From a virus (taxonomy: Duplodnaviria; Heunggongvirae; Uroviricota; Caudoviricetes), in the IMG/VR virus record IMGVR_UViG_2695420369_000012: a stretch of DNA of 5,615 nucleotides. One strand, given 5' to 3'. Of this stretch, positions 1-5,615 are shown piece by piece. A program made the position numbers and the translations under genes. The notes beneath the pieces are model-generated. The model searched no databases, was not told the DNA's origin, and was given only the letters and a program-made list of their open reading frames with translations. Position 1 is the stretch's first letter. The number at the start of each line of letters is the position of its first letter.

Positions 1-55
1 GTTTGATATTGAAGAAGCATGGGCTGAGCGGCAGTTAAAAAAGGTAACTAGGTAA
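1..55 (+). CDS. 3' end of an upstream gene (...FDIEEAWAERQLKKVTR*), probably the late antiterminator Q; partial, 5' end outside window
   Basis: Open frame 2..52 with TAA stop at 53-55, sitting immediately upstream of a lambda pR'-like promoter and tR' terminator. Position-based call; the 17 residues are too few to identify by sequence. Confidence 0.35.
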   Translation, partial: FDIEEAWAERQLKKVTR

Positions 56-60
56 CAAGG

Positions 61-88
61 TTGATTTTTCCGGAATCTGTGGTAAATT
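61..88 (+). promoter_or_regulatory. pR'-like late promoter (-35 TTGATT, 16-bp spacer, -10 TAAATT) with qut-like downstream sequence
   Basis: TTGATT at 61-66 and TAAATT at 83-88, followed by cgtcATAACGATGGG, which resembles the lambda pR'/qut region (TAAATTtgactcAACGATGGG, from memory). Confidence 0.4.
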
Positions 89-136
89 CGTCATAACGAT
101 GGGCGTTTTATGCCTGACGTTAGAAGAGTTTCTACA

Positions 137-159
137 ACCCGCCGCCGAGCGGGTTTTTT
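137..159 (+). terminator. tR'-like intrinsic terminator
   Basis: Stem ACCCGC / GCGGGT with loop CGCCGA, followed by a T6 run. The same stem-loop recurs at 3595-3618. Confidence 0.6.
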
Positions 160-279
160 ATGACTGAAATCGCGTCAGTACAGTAAACGCGCTGGTGGCG
201 GTGAATACCTGTCTTTCAGCTTGCTGGCTTTTTCGACAAGAGTTATTGGTGTGTCACGTTAACCGGAAAAGGAAAAGAC

Positions 280-477
280 ATGCTAAAACAGCAGGATATG
301 ACAGAAACCGCCAGAGTGGTGTTTAATGAATTAAGCGTTACCGAACCGGCGACAGTCGGGGAGATAGCGCAGAATACTTACCTTTCACGCGAACGCTGCC
401 AGTTAATACTGACCCAGCTGGTTATGGCGGGTCTGGCAGACTATCAGTTCGGTTGTTACAGACGCCTTCCGCAGTGA
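280..477 (+). CDS. small (65 aa) protein with HTH-like segment (ATVGEIAQNTYLSRERCQLIL); hypothetical DNA-binding protein
   Basis: ATG at 280 preceded by a good Shine-Dalgarno (AAAGGAAAAGAC-ATG). The ORF ends in the stem of an intrinsic terminator. It lies directly upstream of the methyltransferase. Confidence 0.55.
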   Translation: MLKQQDMTETARVVFNELSVTEPATVGEIAQNTYLSRERCQLILTQLVMAGLADYQFGCYRRLPQ

Positions 478-490
478 AGGCTTTTTTATT
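464..490 (+). terminator. intrinsic terminator overlapping the stop codon of the 65-aa ORF
   Basis: Stem GCCTTC / GAAGGC with loop CGCAGT, followed by TTTTTTATT. Confidence 0.55.
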
Positions 491-504
491 TGTGGTAAAT
501 GGGC

Positions 505-535
505 GGCTGGTGGGTGTTAGGGGCACCCACCAGCC
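505..535 (+). other. perfect 12-bp-stem hairpin (GGCTGGTGGGTG ttagggg CACCCACCAGCC) containing a Chi octamer GCTGGTGG in the 5' arm
   Basis: Exact inverted repeat read from the sequence; no U-tract follows, so it is not a typical terminator. It lies in the 5' leader of the methyltransferase gene. Confidence 0.5.
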
Positions 536-627
536 ATCTGCTCATGCGTTGGGTTCACAAGCAAACCTCAGGCCCACTGCTTTGCGCAAAAGCAGAATGA
601 GCCTATCAGAGACAGGCTTAATGATCC

Positions 628-1686
628 ATGCTTAATACTGTAAAAATATCCAGTTGTGAGTTAATCAACGCCGACTGCCTGGAATTTATCCGGTCGTTAC
701 CCGAAAATTCTGTTGACCTGATAGTCACGGACCCGCCGTACTTTAAAGTGAAGCCTGAGGGCTGGGATAACCAGTGGAAGGGCGACGATGATTACCTGAA
801 GTGGCTGGACCAGTGTCTGGCGCAGTTCTGGCGGGTGCTGAAACCTGCCGGAAGTCTTTACCTGTTCTGTGGTCATCGCCTGGCATCTGATATCGAAATC
901 ATGATGCGTGAACGCTTCAGTGTGCTGAACCATATTATCTGGGCGAAGCCGTCCGGACGCTGGAACGGATGCAACAAGGAAAGCCTGCGGGCGTATTTCC
1001 CCGCCACAGAGCGCATTCTGTTCGCGGAACATTATCAGGGGCCGTATCGTCCGAAAGATGCCGGGTATGCGGCGAAGGGCAGTGCACTGAAACAGCATGT
1101 GATGGCCCCGCTGATTTCTTACTTTCGTGATGCGCGAGCTGCCCTGGGGATAACGGCAAAACAGATTGCAGATGCCACAGGAAAGAAAAACATGGTGTCG
1201 CACTGGTTCAGTGCCGGTCAGTGGCAGTTGCCGAATGAAAGCGATTATCTGAAATTACAGGCGCTGTTTGCCCGGGTGGCAGAAGAGAAGCATCGGCGTG
1301 GTGAACTGGAAAAGCTCCACCACCAGCTGGTGGATACGTATACCTCACTGAACCGGCAGTATGCGGAGCTGCTGAGTGAATATAAACATCTGCGGCGGTA
1401 TTTTGGCGTGACGGTGCAGGTGCCGTATACCGATGTGTGGACGCATAAACCGGTGCAGTTCTATCCCGGGAAACATCCGTGCGAAAAACCGGCAGAAATG
1501 CTGCAGCAGATAATCAGCGCTAGCAGTCGTCCGGGTGACCTGATTGCAGATTTTTTCATGGGGTTGGGTTCGACAGTGAAAGCGGCACTGGCGCTCGGGC
1601 GTCGTGCAATTGGCGTTGAGCTGGAGACTGAACGTTTTGAGCAGACGGTTCGGGAAGTACAGGATTTAGTCAGCCAGAACGGATGA
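628..1686 (+). CDS. DNA methyltransferase, beta-class (motif IV DPPY near N-terminus, motif I FxGxG near C-terminus); most likely N6-adenine, N4-cytosine not excluded
   Basis: 352-aa ORF with DLIVTDPPYF at about residue 30 and HPCEKPAEMLQQIISASSRPGDLIADFFMGLGSTVKAALALGRRAIGVE at the C-terminus, the same order and layout as CcrM/YhdJ-type enzymes. A central insert of roughly 130 aa has an HTH-like stretch (ITAKQIADATGKK). Weak RBS. Confidence 0.9.
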   Translation: MLNTVKISSCELINADCLEFIRSLPENSVDLIVTDPPYFKVKPEGWDNQWKGDDDYLKWLDQCLAQFWRVLKPAGSLYLFCGHRLASDIEIMMRERFSVLNHIIWAKPSGRWNGCNKESLRAYFPATERILFAEHYQGPYRPKDAGYAAKGSALKQHVMAPLISYFRDARAALGITAKQIADATGKKNMVSHWFSAGQWQLPNESDYLKLQALFARVAEEKHRRGELEKLHHQLVDTYTSLNRQYAELLSEYKHLRRYFGVTVQVPYTDVWTHKPVQFYPGKHPCEKPAEMLQQIISASSRPGDLIADFFMGLGSTVKAALALGRRAIGVELETERFEQTVREVQDLVSQNG

Positions 1687-1726
1687 TATTGAAGAATTAA
1701 TTACGCGTCGTTATTATGCGGCTCCC

Positions 1727-1802
1727 GGCCCTTTAGCTCAGTGGTGAGAGCGAGCGACTCATAATCGCCAGGTCGCTGGTTCAAATCCAGCAAGGGCCAC
1801 CA
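1727..1802 (+). tRNA. ileZ: tRNA-Ile2 (anticodon CAU, lysidine type; ileX/ileZ-like). Could be scored as tRNA-Met by anticodon alone
   Basis: Hand-folded cloverleaf: acceptor GGCCCTT/AAGGGCC, D-arm GCTC..GAGC, anticodon loop CTCATAA, T-arm GCTGG-TTCAAAT-CCAGC, encoded CCA. Near-identical to E. coli ileX as I recall it. Confidence 0.85.
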
Positions 1803-1809
1803 TCACATA

Positions 1810-1886
1810 CCGCCATTAGCTCATCAGGAAAGAGCGCCAGCCTTCGAAGCTGGCTGCGCGGGGTTCAAGTCCCCGATGGCGGTCCA
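1810..1886 (+). tRNA. tRNA-Arg (anticodon UCG)
   Basis: Acceptor CCGCCAT/ATGGCGG, anticodon stem CCAGC/GCTGG with loop CTTCGAA, T-arm CGGGG-TTCAAGT-CCCCG, encoded CCA. Confidence 0.8.
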
Positions 1887-1899
1887 TTATCTGCATCAT

Positions 1900-1976
1900 G
1901 CGTTGTTAGCTCAGCCGGACAGAGCAATTGCCTTCTAAGCAATCGGTCACTGGTTCGAATCCAGTACAACGCGCCA
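1900..1976 (+). tRNA. tRNA-Arg (anticodon UCU)
   Basis: Acceptor GCGTTGT/ACAACGC, anticodon stem ATTGC/GCAAT with loop CTTCTAA, T-arm ACTGG-TTCGAAT-CCAGT, encoded CCA. Resembles argU-type tRNA. Confidence 0.85.
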
Positions 1977-1990
1977 CACTTATTTTCCCT

Positions 1991-2016
1991 GGCTCGCTTT
2001 TGCGGGCCTTTTTTTT
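1991..2016 (+). terminator. intrinsic terminator after the tRNA cluster
   Basis: Stem GGCTCGC / GCGGGCC (one G-U pair) with loop TTTT, followed by a T8 run. Confidence 0.6.
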
Positions 2017-2236
2017 AAATGTCTCACAATTCAGACGGTTGACAGTTGTCTGTTTTGCGGGGAGTTTGTTAAAAGAAACTGGCATGGTGAATCCCCCTGT
2101 GCGGAGGGGCAATCAGCGAGTAGGTATATGGGATAATCGCGGATTCAGGTGCTGGTACTGAATTCACCGGGAGGCACCCGGCATCATGCAATGGCACATA
2201 GCGCCACTCTCCAGCCCTCTCCGGAGGGGCTTTTCT
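2013..2236 (+). repeat. conserved ~225-bp structured element, copy A (candidate small RNA with its own terminator)
   Basis: Matches 4566-4790. The 3' ~170 nt are near-identical (1 substitution, 1 indel); the 5' ~50 nt carry about 6 substitutions. Contains TTGACA at 2039-2044, an extended -10-like TGtTAAAAG at 2068-2076, several internal hairpins, and a terminal GC hairpin + U-tract at 2213-2236. Confidence 0.7.
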
Positions 2237-2463
2237 GTGCCGGATACATCACAGTTTCTGGAACCTTAGGTACTACAGTATCAGTCAGGGTGCTATATTT
2301 TCAGATGTGATGAAAGCCTGTCAGCAGGCAGGGCGTATCGGAAATGACCCAGTAGAGAAAACGTTGACTCAGATACCGGTGCTGAGTTACCGGGAAACCG
2401 GCATCACATGACCGCTATCCTGAGGTGTACTGGCAATAGCGGACACTACCATTTGTTCTTTTT

Positions 2464-3282
2464 TTAAGCAGCCATCTGATGATATTTTTCCCTGAAGGCT
2501 GCCGGGGAGATATTCCCCAGACGAGAGTGACGACGCTGACGATTGTAGAAAATCTCAATGTATTCCCGTATTACTGAGATGGCTTCATCCCGGTTATTAA
2601 AACGATAGTGGCTCAGGCTCTCATTTTTCAGCGTTCCCCAGAAGCTTTCCATCGGAGCGTTGTCGTAACAGTTACCTTTACGCGACATTGATGTTTTCAG
2701 ACCAGACTGCTCCTGTATGACCCGGTAATCGTATGCGCAGTACTGTGAACCTCGATCAGAGTGGTGGATTAGCCCGGCAGGTGGGCGCTGGCTCCTGAGC
2801 GCCATAAACAGGGCTTTACCTGTCAGCTCTTTTGTCATGCGCTCTCCCATGGCGTAGCCGACAATTTCGCACGTATAAACATCTTTGATGCCAGCGAGGT
2901 ACAACCATCCCTCCTGTGTGGCAACATACGTCAGGTCCGCCACCCAGACCTGATTTGGTGCTGTAGGAGCGAACGTCTGGTTCAGCAGATTTGGCGCAAC
3001 TGGCAGATTGTGGTTCGAGTTCGTAGTCGCTCTGAACTTGCGTTTCTGCTTACAGCGTAGCCTTAGCTCCTTACGAAGACGTGCCAGTCGGTCACGACCA
3101 ACGATGATGCCATTCTCTGCCAGCTCCGTCTGGAGCCGCCGGGTTCCATATGTTTCGCGAGTGCGGATATGTGCCACCTTAATCTCCAGTTTTAGCCGCT
3201 CATCACTTTGTTTTCTGTCTGAGGGTTCATGCTGTACCCAGTTGTAATAACCGCTCCTGGATACACCAAATACCTGACACAT
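2464..3282 (-). CDS. IS3-family transposase OrfB (DDE integrase core)
   Basis: 272-aa ORF with hallmark IS3 OrfB segments: VWVADLTYV...GWLYLA, HSDRGSQY, SMSRKGNCYDNAPMESFWGTLK, YNRQRRHSRLGNISP. Confidence 0.9.
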   Translation of the reverse strand: MCQVFGVSRSGYYNWVQHEPSDRKQSDERLKLEIKVAHIRTRETYGTRRLQTELAENGIIVGRDRLARLRKELRLRCKQKRKFRATTNSNHNLPVAPNLLNQTFAPTAPNQVWVADLTYVATQEGWLYLAGIKDVYTCEIVGYAMGERMTKELTGKALFMALRSQRPPAGLIHHSDRGSQYCAYDYRVIQEQSGLKTSMSRKGNCYDNAPMESFWGTLKNESLSHYRFNNRDEAISVIREYIEIFYNRQRRHSRLGNISPAAFREKYHQMAA

Positions 3283-3317
3283 CGCTTCAATGGGAAATTG
3301 TTGTCGCCATTGTTCGA

Positions 3318-3589
3318 TTAACGCGTATTTTTCAGCGACTCCTGTGCAAAATACGCTGTTGCTTTTTTTAATATATCTCGCTCAAGGCGAGCTTCATTTA
3401 ACGCCTTACGCAGTTGCAGAATTTCAGATTCCAGTTCAGCCACCGTGCGGGAACCAGGAGTACCGAGCCCTTTTCTGGCGGCGGTAACCCATTGTCCTAA
3501 AGTGCCTTCAGGAAGAGATAATCGGGAAGCGCCTTCACTGATCGAAAGTTGATTTTCAATTTCTTTATTTCGGTTCCATACCCACGCGC
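3318..3589 (-). pseudogene. IS3-family OrfA, 5'-truncated (C-terminal ~90 codons remain)
   Basis: Minus-strand frame reads ...EIENQLSISEGASRLSLPEGTLGQWV...ELESEILQLRKALNEARLERDILKKATAYFAQESLKNTR*, with stop at 3318-3320. The N-terminal start is missing because the IS is cut at 3589. Confidence 0.7.
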
Positions 3590-3594
3590 CTACA

Positions 3595-3618
3595 ACCCGC
3601 CGCCGAGCGGGTTTTTTA
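3595..3618 (+). terminator. second copy of the tR'-like terminator, fused directly to the truncated IS end
   Basis: Same hairpin as 137-159 (ctacaACCCGCcgccgaGCGGGTttttttat), but with no pR' or Q upstream. Confidence 0.5.
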
Positions 3619-3656
3619 TTGCGGAATTAATTACGGACCGTTATTATTCTGCTCCC

Positions 3657-3732
3657 GGCCCTTTAGCTCAGTGGTGAGAGCGAGCGACTCATAATCGCCA
3701 GGTCGCTGGTTCAAATCCAGCAAGGGCCACCA
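3657..3732 (+). tRNA. ileZ: tRNA-Ile2 (CAU), second copy
   Basis: 76/76 identical to 1727-1802. Confidence 0.85.
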
Positions 3733-3739
3733 TCACAAA

Positions 3740-3819
3740 CCGCCATTAGCTTATCAGGAAGAGCAGACGACACGATAACAGGGTTGTTGGTGCGGGGGCG
3801 GGTCCCCGATGGCGGTCCA
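3740..3819 (+). pseudogene. degenerate tRNA-Arg-like gene: acceptor stem and D-arm kept, anticodon arm and T-loop replaced
   Basis: Same acceptor stem (CCGCCAT/ATGGCGG) and D-arm as the tRNA at 1810-1886, but the interior reads AGACGACACGATAACAGGGTTGTTGGTG and the T-loop is GCGGGT rather than TTCAAGT. I could not fold a canonical anticodon stem. Confidence 0.5.
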
Positions 3820-3832
3820 TTATCGGTATTCA

Positions 3833-4019: not shown

Positions 4020-4373
4020 TTGATTGAGTGTTTGTTATACGGTCTAATGGTTTTTTCAGCATTAAATATTTATCATTCATATGGTGTGGGTAGAGTGAAT
4101 ATTGATGAGGCGTCGGGGTGTTTCATCCTTAGGCAGCGTATTGATATAGTCAATGCAGCACGAGCAAAGGCCTTCAGCCGTTTGACAGTTTTGTTCTGTA
4201 CTCCTGATCGTCTTTCGGGAAGAGACGTTATTATTCTGAATAGTGATGCTATACAGAGGGTTTGCGATGAGTTCATGGTTGCTAATTCAGAATTATTTGC
4301 TCTTGTTCAGGAGTACAACAGAATAGCCAGGACCTGTGGTATGGATGAACTTCGGATTACTCATCTGGGGTAG
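4020..4373 (+). CDS. hypothetical protein (up to 117 aa) in an AT-rich insert; start uncertain (TTG 4020, ATG 4047 or GTG 4095)
   Basis: Open frame in an AT-rich segment that is absent from the first module. No convincing Shine-Dalgarno at any candidate start. No recognisable motif. Confidence 0.4.
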   Translation: MIECLLYGLMVFSALNIYHSYGVGRVNIDEASGCFILRQRIDIVNAARAKAFSRLTVLFCTPDRLSGRDVIILNSDAIQRVCDEFMVANSELFALVQEYNRIARTCGMDELRITHLG

Positions 4374-4820: not shown

Positions 4821-5156
4821 TTATGGACTTTGTTGTTTTAGTCCATAAGGACATATTTGCAGAGTGCAACGGTTATTAAAGCATTCATTCAATACGTTAT
4901 CTGTATTTGTAGGGCATTCCTGGCTATTTTTGATTGAATTCCAGAATGTTTTATTGAATGGTACTACGTTGTAAATGGTTACAGGTAGCACTTTGTTATT
5001 GAGCATGATGCCTGTGTGAGTCAGTGTAAATATACTTTCAGGAGGTAAGAAAGCATCCGATTGATACCAGATTATTAATTTTATTTTACTCCATATGACT
5101 GAAAAAGATATTCCGCATGATGGCTGGATAACTGTATCAATCACAATCCACTTCAT
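4821..5156 (-). CDS. iraM: IraM-like anti-adaptor protein (YcgW/ElbA family, RssB inhibitor that stabilises RpoS); 111 aa
   Basis: Strong Shine-Dalgarno (AAGGAAactaa-ATG). The N-terminus [19 protein letters not shown] and the C-terminal ICPYGLK with conserved cysteines (SQECP...C...C...ICPYG) match my recollection of E. coli K-12 IraM, at roughly 60% identity overall. AT-rich context. Confidence 0.65.
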
Positions 5157-5416: not shown

Positions 5417-5543
5417 ATGGCATTTAAACACTATGATGTTGTCAGGGCGGCGCCGCCGTCAGATCTTGCGGAAAAGCTGACACATAAACTGAAAGAGGGC
5501 TGGCAGCCGTTTGGTAGTCCGGTGGCCATAACCCCTTATACCC
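5417..5543 (+). pseudogene. DUF1737-like small phage protein, 3'-truncated by IS insertion
   Basis: ATG at 5417 with RBS GGTGGAAAG. MAFKHYDVVRAAPPSDLAEKLTHKLKEGWQPFGSPVAI resembles the small proteins that precede holin genes in lambdoid phages. The frame runs into the IS end at 5544 and picks up IS-derived residues. Confidence 0.4.
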
Positions 5544-5615
5544 TGAGGTGTACTGGCAATAGCGGACACTACCATTTGTTCTTTTTTTAAGCAGCCATCT
5601 GATGATATTTTTCCC
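5544..5615 (-). mobile_element. second copy of the same IS3-family element; only its terminal 72 bp fall in the window
   Basis: 5544-5615 matches 2421-2492 (TGAGGTGTACTGGCAATAGCGGACACTACCATTTGTTC...). Confidence 0.75.

Follow-up and report, generated by a model that had tools for sequence, protein, structure and literature searches.

The 5,615-nt stretch analysed here (the window; IMG/VR virus record IMGVR_UViG_2695420369_000012, Caudoviricetes) contains two partial copies of late-region DNA from lambdoid prophages, designated modules A and B. In module A, a gene for a 65-residue winged-helix protein, a structured leader RNA and a gene for a 352-residue orphan DNA methyltransferase (methylase) follow one another on the same strand, between the intrinsic terminator tR' (which lies behind the antiterminator gene Q) and a cluster of three transfer RNA (tRNA) genes (Table 1). 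An earlier note on this DNA, made from its letters, had described about 1.5 kb between these two landmarks in module A and an almost direct fusion of tR' to the tRNA leader in module B, and the alignment of both module A junctions to module B bears this out: module B (3590-3618) equals module A (132-160) up to ...GGGTTTTTTAT (161 in module A), and resumes as module A from about position 1688 (TTGxxGAATTAATTACG...GCTCCCGGCCC). The segment delimited in this way (the cassette) is 1,527 bp long and ends 2 nt past the methylase stop codon, its edges being defined to within ±3 nt, since AT/TAT is present at both junctions. Both open reading frames (ORFs) lie where the note had placed them. We consider it probable that temperate phages carry this segment as a conserved cargo cassette of three parts, positioned as the first unit of the late operon after pR'-tR', the methylase of which would be made late and would protect progeny DNA.

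Table 1. Positions in the window of the cassette, its parts and the flanking landmarks.
Feature	Position	Strand	Remarks
Cassette	162-1688	+	In module A; missing from module B and from natural empty-site alleles (junction alignment with loci L010 and L011)
65-residue winged-helix protein, PHROG 331	280-477	+	Ribosome-binding site AAGGAA at 269-274
Structured leader RNA	499-627	+	About 130 nt, six helices; ends at the methylase AUG (628)
P1	499-504/540-545		Encloses P2
P2	505-516/524-535		Perfect 12-bp inverted repeat
P3	551-555/623-627		Closes at the AUG (628)
P4	559-562/616-619
P5	570-576/598-604
P6	577-583/589-595
Orphan beta-class N6-adenine DNA methyltransferase, M.EcoGI/GII family	628-1686	+	352 residues
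Terminator-like G+C-rich hairpin over the small ORF stop codon (TGA, 475-477)	464-487	+	Hairpin 464-481, then T6
Conserved block TTGCTG-N12-AGAGTTA-N3-GT	221-250	+	Upstream of the small ORF; invariant in 7 phages with three unrelated Q families
Intrinsic terminator tR'	136-161	+	Stem 136-142/149-155, T run after it; left landmark, also in module B (3590-3618)
Putative late promoter pR'	61-88	+	TTGATT, 16 nt, TGG-TAAATT; read from the sequence
Q antiterminator gene, 3' end	1-55	+	Backbone, outside the cassette; window position 1 is 4001 of locus L001, in which the annotated antitermination protein ends at 4055
Promoter-like site TTGAAG-17-TATTAT	1689-1717	+	Right junction, upstream of the tRNA genes; backbone
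Three tRNA genes: ileZ-type (CAT), Arg-TCG, Arg-TCT	1727-1976	+	Right landmark, backbone; the first is tRNA-Ile in RefSeq
Module B empty site	3590-3660	+	tR' copy fused directly to the tRNA leader

Module B represents a natural allele and no artefact, because this empty junction, beside the same Q gene, is also seen in Escherichia coli chromosomes and in phages mEp460_ev081 and vB_EcoS-640R1. Both E. coli strain 120899 and vB_EcoS-640R1 carry the same hokD-DUF968-rusA-Q genes and the same pR'/tR', and in both tR' continues straight into the tRNA leader. Empty sites were counted only from listed matches that begin at window position 3590, as the overall figure of 1142 is unusable (cassette-bearing loci also pass the 80% coverage threshold). 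The cassette itself was found at a coverage of at least 80% in 2007 of 5426 complete E. coli genomes (37%), at up to 10 places per genome, and it is also present in many Stx2a, Stx2c, Stx2d and Stx2e phages, between Q and the tRNA-stx genes. In E. coli, Shigella sonnei, phiP27, 1720a-02, SfV, mEp460 and Hafnia phage yong2 it stands directly after Q and a terminator, ahead of tRNA/stx or lysis genes; the adjoining Q genes belong to three unrelated families (PF03589, PF06323 and PF06530), and holin and lysozyme genes lie downstream of the pair formed by the small ORF and the methylase. Given the varied Q families and the lysis genes behind, we regard this pair as a mobile unit with one functional address, namely the first position of the late operon. 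It behaves as lambdoid late-operon cargo (a 'moron'), being present in some phages and missing from others that are otherwise syntenic, at one fixed site between tR' and the lysis genes, and stx occupies the same site elsewhere. Moreover, in a metagenomic prophage (L296, 3650-5591) Q is followed by genes for a Ser/Thr protein kinase and a PP2C phosphatase and then by a truncated, 89-residue methylase remnant, from which it follows that the site after Q takes other cargo as well.

The linkage of the two genes was surveyed by searching the small protein against one genome per species, which yielded 34 loci (in Escherichia, Salmonella, Klebsiella, Citrobacter, Kluyvera, Enterobacter, Buttiauxella, Mangrovibacter, Mixta, Proteus, Providencia and Plesiomonas). 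The methylase was encoded downstream of the small ORF, on the same strand and with a start-to-start distance of 339-356 nt, in all 32 evaluable loci. Conversely, profile searches placed the small gene upstream of 74 of 80 close, 55 of 80 N15-like and 25 of 80 Vibrio-type methylase genes. The empty-site alleles, the constant linkage in the surveyed loci and the fixed address after Q/tR' uphold the proposal of the earlier note that the segment is a self-contained cargo module, and the terminator that it had ascribed to this module is recognizable as the terminator-like hairpin with its T6 tail behind the small ORF.

The 352-residue protein matches PF01555 (N6_N4_Mtase, E 7.9e-42) and has the motif order of a beta-class enzyme, DPPY occupying residues 35-38 (nt 730-741) and FxGxG residues 310-314 (nt 1555-1569), in line with the class that the earlier note had assigned to it. 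It is identical to M.EcoGII in 324 of 349 residues (93%; an approximate figure, perhaps slightly below the true value, since the M.EcoGII sequence was machine-read from the PDF of supplement 5 of PMC11551740), 96% identical to a 349-residue paralogue at the syntenic locus of the O104:H4 outbreak strain 2011C-3493, and 95% identical to the enzyme of phage 1720a-02, which has been named as a carrier of a very similar methylase (PMC5778455). M.EcoGII is non-specific, prophage-encoded, unexpressed in the lysogen and harmful when constitutive (PMC5778455). The orthologues M.EcoGI, M.EcoGII and M.EcoMV are silent in lysogens and lack a sequence motif, and homologues in O111 Shiga-toxin-producing E. 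coli and in sequence type (ST) 131 (92-99% similarity or identity) are catalogued as non-specific and silent (PMC5778455, PMC6602927, PMC4659465). The family's location in prophages, without a cognate endonuclease, is found here too. Judged by every feature that a sequence can test, the window enzyme is a member of the M.EcoGII/M.EcoGI family, and the published properties of its orthologues point to the protection of phage DNA as its most likely role, as the earlier note had suggested. The absence of a methylation motif, which that note had offered as a refuting sign, would wrongly reject a working enzyme, since the family is motif-less and silent in lysogens.

The same properties bear on the proposal that the methylase acts as an epigenetic regulator of the lysogen, expressed from the prophage in normal growth and altering host expression in the manner of Dam or CcrM. 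Phage-borne methylases offer a precedent in M.EcoGIII of O104:H4, and a promoter might reside in the conserved block at 221-250; nevertheless, two terminators (tR' among them) precede the methylase gene, the orthologues leave neither a methylation signal nor a transcript in lysogens, and an enzyme without a sequence motif is harmful when expressed constitutively. We therefore regard an epigenetic action in the lysogen, which the earlier note had considered as well, as highly improbable.

The 65-residue ORF is a real gene, as indicated by its 334 homologues, by its low ratio of non-synonymous to synonymous change, by a good ribosome-binding site and by the confident fold of its product. Its non-synonymous divergence from phiP27 is nil (dN = 0, dS = 0.24), and in comparison to Salmonella and Kluyvera the proportion of non-synonymous differences (pN) is about 0.08, with synonymous sites saturated. 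The AlphaFold2 model (pLDDT 90) is a canonical winged helix of topology H1-b-H2-H3-b-b, which among PDB structures comes nearest to winged-helix domains from regulators of the IclR and MarR types, from O-methyltransferases and from SelB, all with weak E-values; the modelled fold is to be considered generic. At the family level the protein belongs to PHROG 331 (E 1.4e-37; N15 gp51 5.7e-28, mEp460 gp52 4.6e-26), for which 84 representative clusters were found among 1.84 billion proteins. Its Pfam hits are all sub-threshold winged-helix families (TrmB, MarR_2, DprA_WH, HTH_24), no NCBIfam model matches it, and its TrmB (PF01978) score of 18 bits misses the cut-off of 25.6, for which reason we take the NCBI name 'TrmB family transcriptional regulator' to reflect a generic winged-helix resemblance.

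The earlier note had supposed that this small helix-turn-helix protein could regulate in the way controller (C) proteins of restriction-modification systems do. The protein matches neither PF01381 (Xre-type helix-turn-helix) nor any PADLOC model, and between positions 161 and 279 there is no inverted repeat of at least 7 nt that would resemble a C-box; its winged-helix fold and its family, together with the lack of a C-box dyad and of an endonuclease gene, rule this reading out. Endonuclease-like ORFs were found neither in the window, nor within ±6 kb of the cassette in six identical S. sonnei loci, nor in the annotated neighbourhoods of phiP27, 1720a-02, SfV, mEp460, Hafnia phage yong2, phiKO2, N15 and VHML, and in the examined annotations the cassette is always flanked by the Q gene and, at its other end, by tRNA, stx or lysis genes. 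A classical type II system, in which the small protein would time the synthesis of the methylase and of an endonuclease encoded just beyond the window, would account for the order of the two genes (a small DNA-binding protein followed by a methylase recalls C-M arrangements) and for the PADLOC models calling the enzyme 'MTase_II'. Set against the missing endonuclease, the winged-helix fold of the small protein and an enzyme family that is catalogued as orphan and non-specific, it has next to no probability left. The cassette is not a restriction-modification system; its methylase is a close relative of M.EcoGII, and the orphan status that had been presumed from the window holds in the flanks and the examined neighbourhoods as well.

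Between the two genes lie about 150 nt that are better conserved than the small ORF itself. The leader within them retains 78-83% nucleotide identity to its counterparts in Salmonella, Kluyvera, Klebsiella and Enterobacter, for which the synonymous sites of the flanking genes are saturated, and it folds into six helices, the last of which closes at the methylase start codon, with invariant single-stranded motifs that include AAAUGGGCG, GGCCCAC and GAGCCUAUCA. An alternative pairing is possible, between UGGGC of the 5' arm of P1 and GCCCA of the 5' arm of P5. A covariance model built from 31 sequences (R1) and a second model (R2) score the window leader at 136.8 and 116 bits, respectively; matches number one per locus, are always on the strand of the gene, and in most loci end at or within a few nucleotides of the AUG, whereas in a Vibrio-type group (L136-L152) they end about 160 nt upstream of the methylase match. 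Each of the 38 genome and phage loci with a hit in the first search, one of them a remnant without methylase, contained a leader match, as did 78 of 80 close, 71 of 80 N15-like and 51 of 80 Vibrio-type viral contigs with R1 (53 of 80 with R2 in the last group); the empty-site loci gave no match. The range of the leader takes in Enterobacterales, phages of Vibrio and Aeromonas type, and plasmid prophages resembling N15, and in N15, phiKO2 and Vibrio phage VHML it still scores 43-57 bits with entirely different stem sequences. As a side observation, the N15 record (L051) places the start of gene 52 at locus position 2035, while homology and the leader RNA put the start codon at 1801, so that about 78 codons are probably missing from the gene as deposited.

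Alignments fitted to the model beforehand showed 95.8% of the cells paired in the enterobacterial set (as compared to 29-41% with slid partners), with 13 pairs carrying double changes (3-7 with slid partners). In a diverse alignment of 48 distinct rows, likewise fitted to the model, 86% of the cells were paired (31-39% when slid), double changes affected 26 of 40 pairs, and doubly changed cells numbered 290 as against 22-58; its covariation score was 0.405 versus about 0.06, and none of 500 shuffles reached the observed value in four of five measures. RNAalifold independently recovered P1-P5 and part of P6. In the enterobacterial alignment (the best-aligned set) G.U pairs outnumber A.C pairs by 109 to 18, which fits a sense-strand RNA. 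A reading of the segment as coding sequence was discarded in view of an in-frame UGA at 622-624 (in or beside the 3' arm of P3), loop insertions and deletions that are not multiples of three, and compensatory changes in the stems. No match at the gathering threshold was found among the 4227 families of Rfam 15 (the whole window being searched at E <= 0.1, positions 440-660 at E <= 10, and three homologous loci at the gathering thresholds); a hit to the P26 family, on the opposite strand and at 24 bits against a threshold of 36, is due to the P2 hairpin alone and was dismissed as chance. Likewise, a literature search by leader sequence strings and by topic returned no paper containing the leader sequence.

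The earlier note had seen in this region a 12-bp hairpin leader: the inverted repeat is indeed perfect, and the conserved RNA of which it forms the helix P2 comprises five further helices. The repeat (505-535) could also be conceived as a double-stranded DNA operator at which a dimer of the winged-helix protein represses the methylase, the covariation then arising from symmetric half-sites. Such dyads are bound by MarR- and IclR-type winged-helix proteins, the palindrome is perfect, and repeat and winged-helix gene are adjacent in all Enterobacterales loci. Against this, covariation extends to the five other helices, which are not palindromic; Proteus, N15 and VHML have a wholly different P2 stem, yet the protein's predicted recognition helix (RCQLILTQL) is invariant in lambdoid-type Enterobacterales homologues, those of Proteus and Plesiomonas included; and the excess, in the best-aligned set, of wobble pairs, which would be mismatches on the other strand, fits an RNA. 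Furthermore, the structure keeps a fixed register to the AUG, and the promoter scan gave no call in the stretch that separates the small ORF from the methylase. We accordingly consider an operator unlikely. Tentatively, and with a confidence that stops short of even, we propose that the leader represents a class of structured cis-regulatory RNAs not catalogued before and confined to methylase genes of the M.EcoGII family, which would gate the translation or processing of a toxic, non-specific methylase in response to a small ligand, for instance S-adenosylmethionine (SAM) or S-adenosylhomocysteine (SAH), or to a protein, for instance the winged-helix protein or the enzyme itself as an RNA-methylating activity.

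With regard to transcription, the putative pR' was not called by a consensus promoter scan; it has an extended -10 element, lies about 65 nt upstream of tR' and would yield a short terminated RNA. In lying between Q and the terminator it agrees with the lambdoid pR'-tR' layout, and such a short terminated transcript would be analogous to the StxS small RNA of Stx phages (PMC7547250). A minimum-free-energy pairing of the 5' arm of tR' with 188-203 was set aside as incidental, since it could form only after the terminator is made. A sigma-70 promoter scan gave no call anywhere in 161-627; the conserved block at 221-250 has no T at -7 and can be called neither a palindrome nor a clear promoter. 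Hairpins with a T-rich tail comparable to that over the small ORF stop codon were found in 23 of 35 loci and are absent from the Proteus/Providencia group. No Shine-Dalgarno sequence lies within the usual 5-9 nt of the methylase AUG; since, in addition, the last helix of the leader abuts this AUG, the leader may limit or time translation.

From this arrangement a working model of the late cargo cassette can be proposed. In the lysogen, transcription from pR' would halt at tR', and the second terminator-like hairpin would help to keep the toxic enzyme off. Upon induction, RNA polymerase modified by Q would pass both terminators, so that the winged-helix protein and the methylase would be produced ahead of the lysis genes. 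The methylase, going by the published properties of its family, would modify adenines of the replicating phage DNA in any sequence context, and progeny DNA would enter the next host shielded from those type I, II and III restriction enzymes that are blocked by N6-methyladenine (m6A). The leader most likely sets the level or timing of methylase translation, or processes the transcript, and the winged-helix protein (an obligate neighbour in Enterobacterales) would be the most likely trans-acting partner of the leader or of the enzyme, with DNA as another possible target. Our confidence in any particular role of the small protein is much lower than in the overall picture.

Several observations weigh against this model or parts of it. 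The dependence of the cassette on Q is inferred from position alone, and the conserved block at 221-250 could be a promoter, in which case the small ORF would be expressed independently of Q. The winged-helix gene is not indispensable to the enzyme, as seen from its share among the N15-like and the Vibrio-type methylase genes. The effect of the leader could be repressing, activating or processing, and the asymmetry between G.U and A.C pairs vanishes in two diverse, less well aligned sets. Lastly, the methylase allele of the window carries a Ser313Leu substitution in motif I and may be weakened or inactive.

The substitution (FFMGLGST in place of FFMGSGST; codon TTG at 1564-1566, one transition away from TCG) lies between the motif I glycines, at a position occupied by Ser in 214 of 223 homologous loci, by Gly in one, and by Ser also in the solved homologue 9c3u. 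Leu is confined to the window and to S. sonnei copies identical to it. Hydrophobic residues at the middle position of FxGxG are tolerated in other methyltransferase classes. The window copy of the cassette is, by its sequence, a Shigella sonnei allele, positions 1-3559 being 99.9-100% identical to S. sonnei chromosomes (including that of strain 53G, record HE616528). It may be asked whether it is a dead relic of a defective prophage, its methylase inactivated by Ser313Leu and without a present function in the genome. The uniqueness of Leu among the 223 loci speaks for such a relic, as do the IS600 copies and the second, truncated late region that adjoin the cassette. On the other hand, no other motif is altered, the two ORFs and the leader (136.8 bits) are intact, and thousands of S. 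sonnei assemblies (4314 index blocks) retain this exact protein. We consider a dead relic possible, if rather doubtful, and it would concern this copy of the cassette.

Outside the cassette, the Q gene in the identical S. sonnei loci encodes a 273-residue PF03589 (Antiterm) protein. The promoter-like site at the right junction, which has a counterpart in module B (TTGCGG...TATTAT, 3619-3647), could drive the tRNAs without Q. Module A further contains the small RNA STnc100 and ends at an IS600 copy (2422-3559, minus strand), while module B continues after the tRNA leader into a second STnc100 copy and a DUF1737 gene that is cut by another IS600 end. The two STnc100 copies (RF02076; 2053-2242 and 4606-4795, one per module) score 123.6 and 132.4 bits, and each terminates in a terminator-like hairpin. 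ARAGORN and Rfam recovered all three tRNA genes in module A and just those for Met/Ile(CAT) and Arg-TCT in module B, in which the middle one (Arg-TCG, argN) is degenerate (3733-3832). Module B, which is 98.9% identical to the matching stretch of an E. coli prophage, carries as cargo of its own a 117-residue ORF without family (4020-4373, plus strand, located after the tRNAs and before the second STnc100 copy) and a 111-residue ORF (4821-5156, minus strand) that is annotated elsewhere as the anti-adapter protein IraM (Pfam PmrD). The IS600 copy of module A is 100% identical to S. sonnei copies and is truncated within orfA at 3559; 30 nt of unmatched filler (3560-3589) separate it from the tR' of module B, and the second IS600 end (5543-5615) interrupts the DUF1737 gene at about 5543. 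On account of the truncated IS600, the filler and the second IS600 end at the junctions, we consider that the two late regions were joined through a rearrangement mediated by insertion sequences. The junction of IS600 and module B was absent from every retrieved locus compared.

The genomic feature as such is ordinary: a widespread, annotated gene pair whose enzyme belongs to a characterised family, here within a Shigella prophage that has decayed. What is out of the ordinary is the strongly covarying and apparently uncatalogued leader RNA, together with the uncharacterised protein neighbour. M.EcoGII is a standard reagent in chromatin footprinting and in RNA-methylation tools. The locus is now a defined unit with two serial terminators, a covarying leader that ends at the start codon and a linked winged-helix protein, and it occurs, often more than once per genome, in over a third of the complete E. 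coli genomes, as well as directly upstream of stx in Shiga-toxin phages.

In comparison to known systems, the small protein shares with the C proteins C.PvuII and C.AhdI its being a small DNA-binding type encoded just upstream of a methylase, and a regulatory role is plausible; C.PvuII and C.AhdI are Xre-type helical bundles (PF01381) with a C-box and a restriction gene, whereas the 65-residue protein is a winged helix with none of these. The leader resembles start-site-occluding leaders and riboswitch expression platforms in its multi-helix 5' architecture, its covarying stems, its invariant single-stranded nucleotides and the abutment of the last helix on the start codon, and differs from them in having no Rfam match and in a terminator that precedes the leader instead of lying inside it. 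Other orphan methylases of phages (the Dam-type enzymes of T4 and P1, and the alpha-class promiscuous adenine methylases cited in PMC5778455) are likewise phage-borne, devoid of an endonuclease and presumed to protect progeny, and the type found here is set apart from them by its beta-class motif order, its lack of specificity, its fixed place as first late gene and its conserved structured leader. Also comparable are gene 51-52 of N15 and gp51-gp52 of phiKO2, both linear plasmid prophages, where a PHROG 331 gene (a distant member in either case), a terminator, the same leader RNA, a methylase 56-60% identical to that of the window and lysis genes follow one another. Unlike the window, the records of N15 and phiKO2 annotate a predicted late promoter and a terminator between the winged-helix gene and the leader, because of which the small gene would lie outside the late transcript in these phages. 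The nearest relatives are M.EcoGII and M.EcoGI of O104:H4 C227-11 and M.EcoMV of ST131 EC958. The window enzyme departs from them in its unique Ser313Leu and in three more C-terminal residues (..VSQNG), which it has in common with phiP27 and 1720a-02, and it shares with the three enzymes an identity of 93-96% over 349-352 residues, the order of DPPY, a target-recognition region containing a helix-turn-helix, and FxGxG, and a lambdoid prophage locus in which DUF968, RusA, Q, the small ORF, the methylase and the tRNAs succeed one another.

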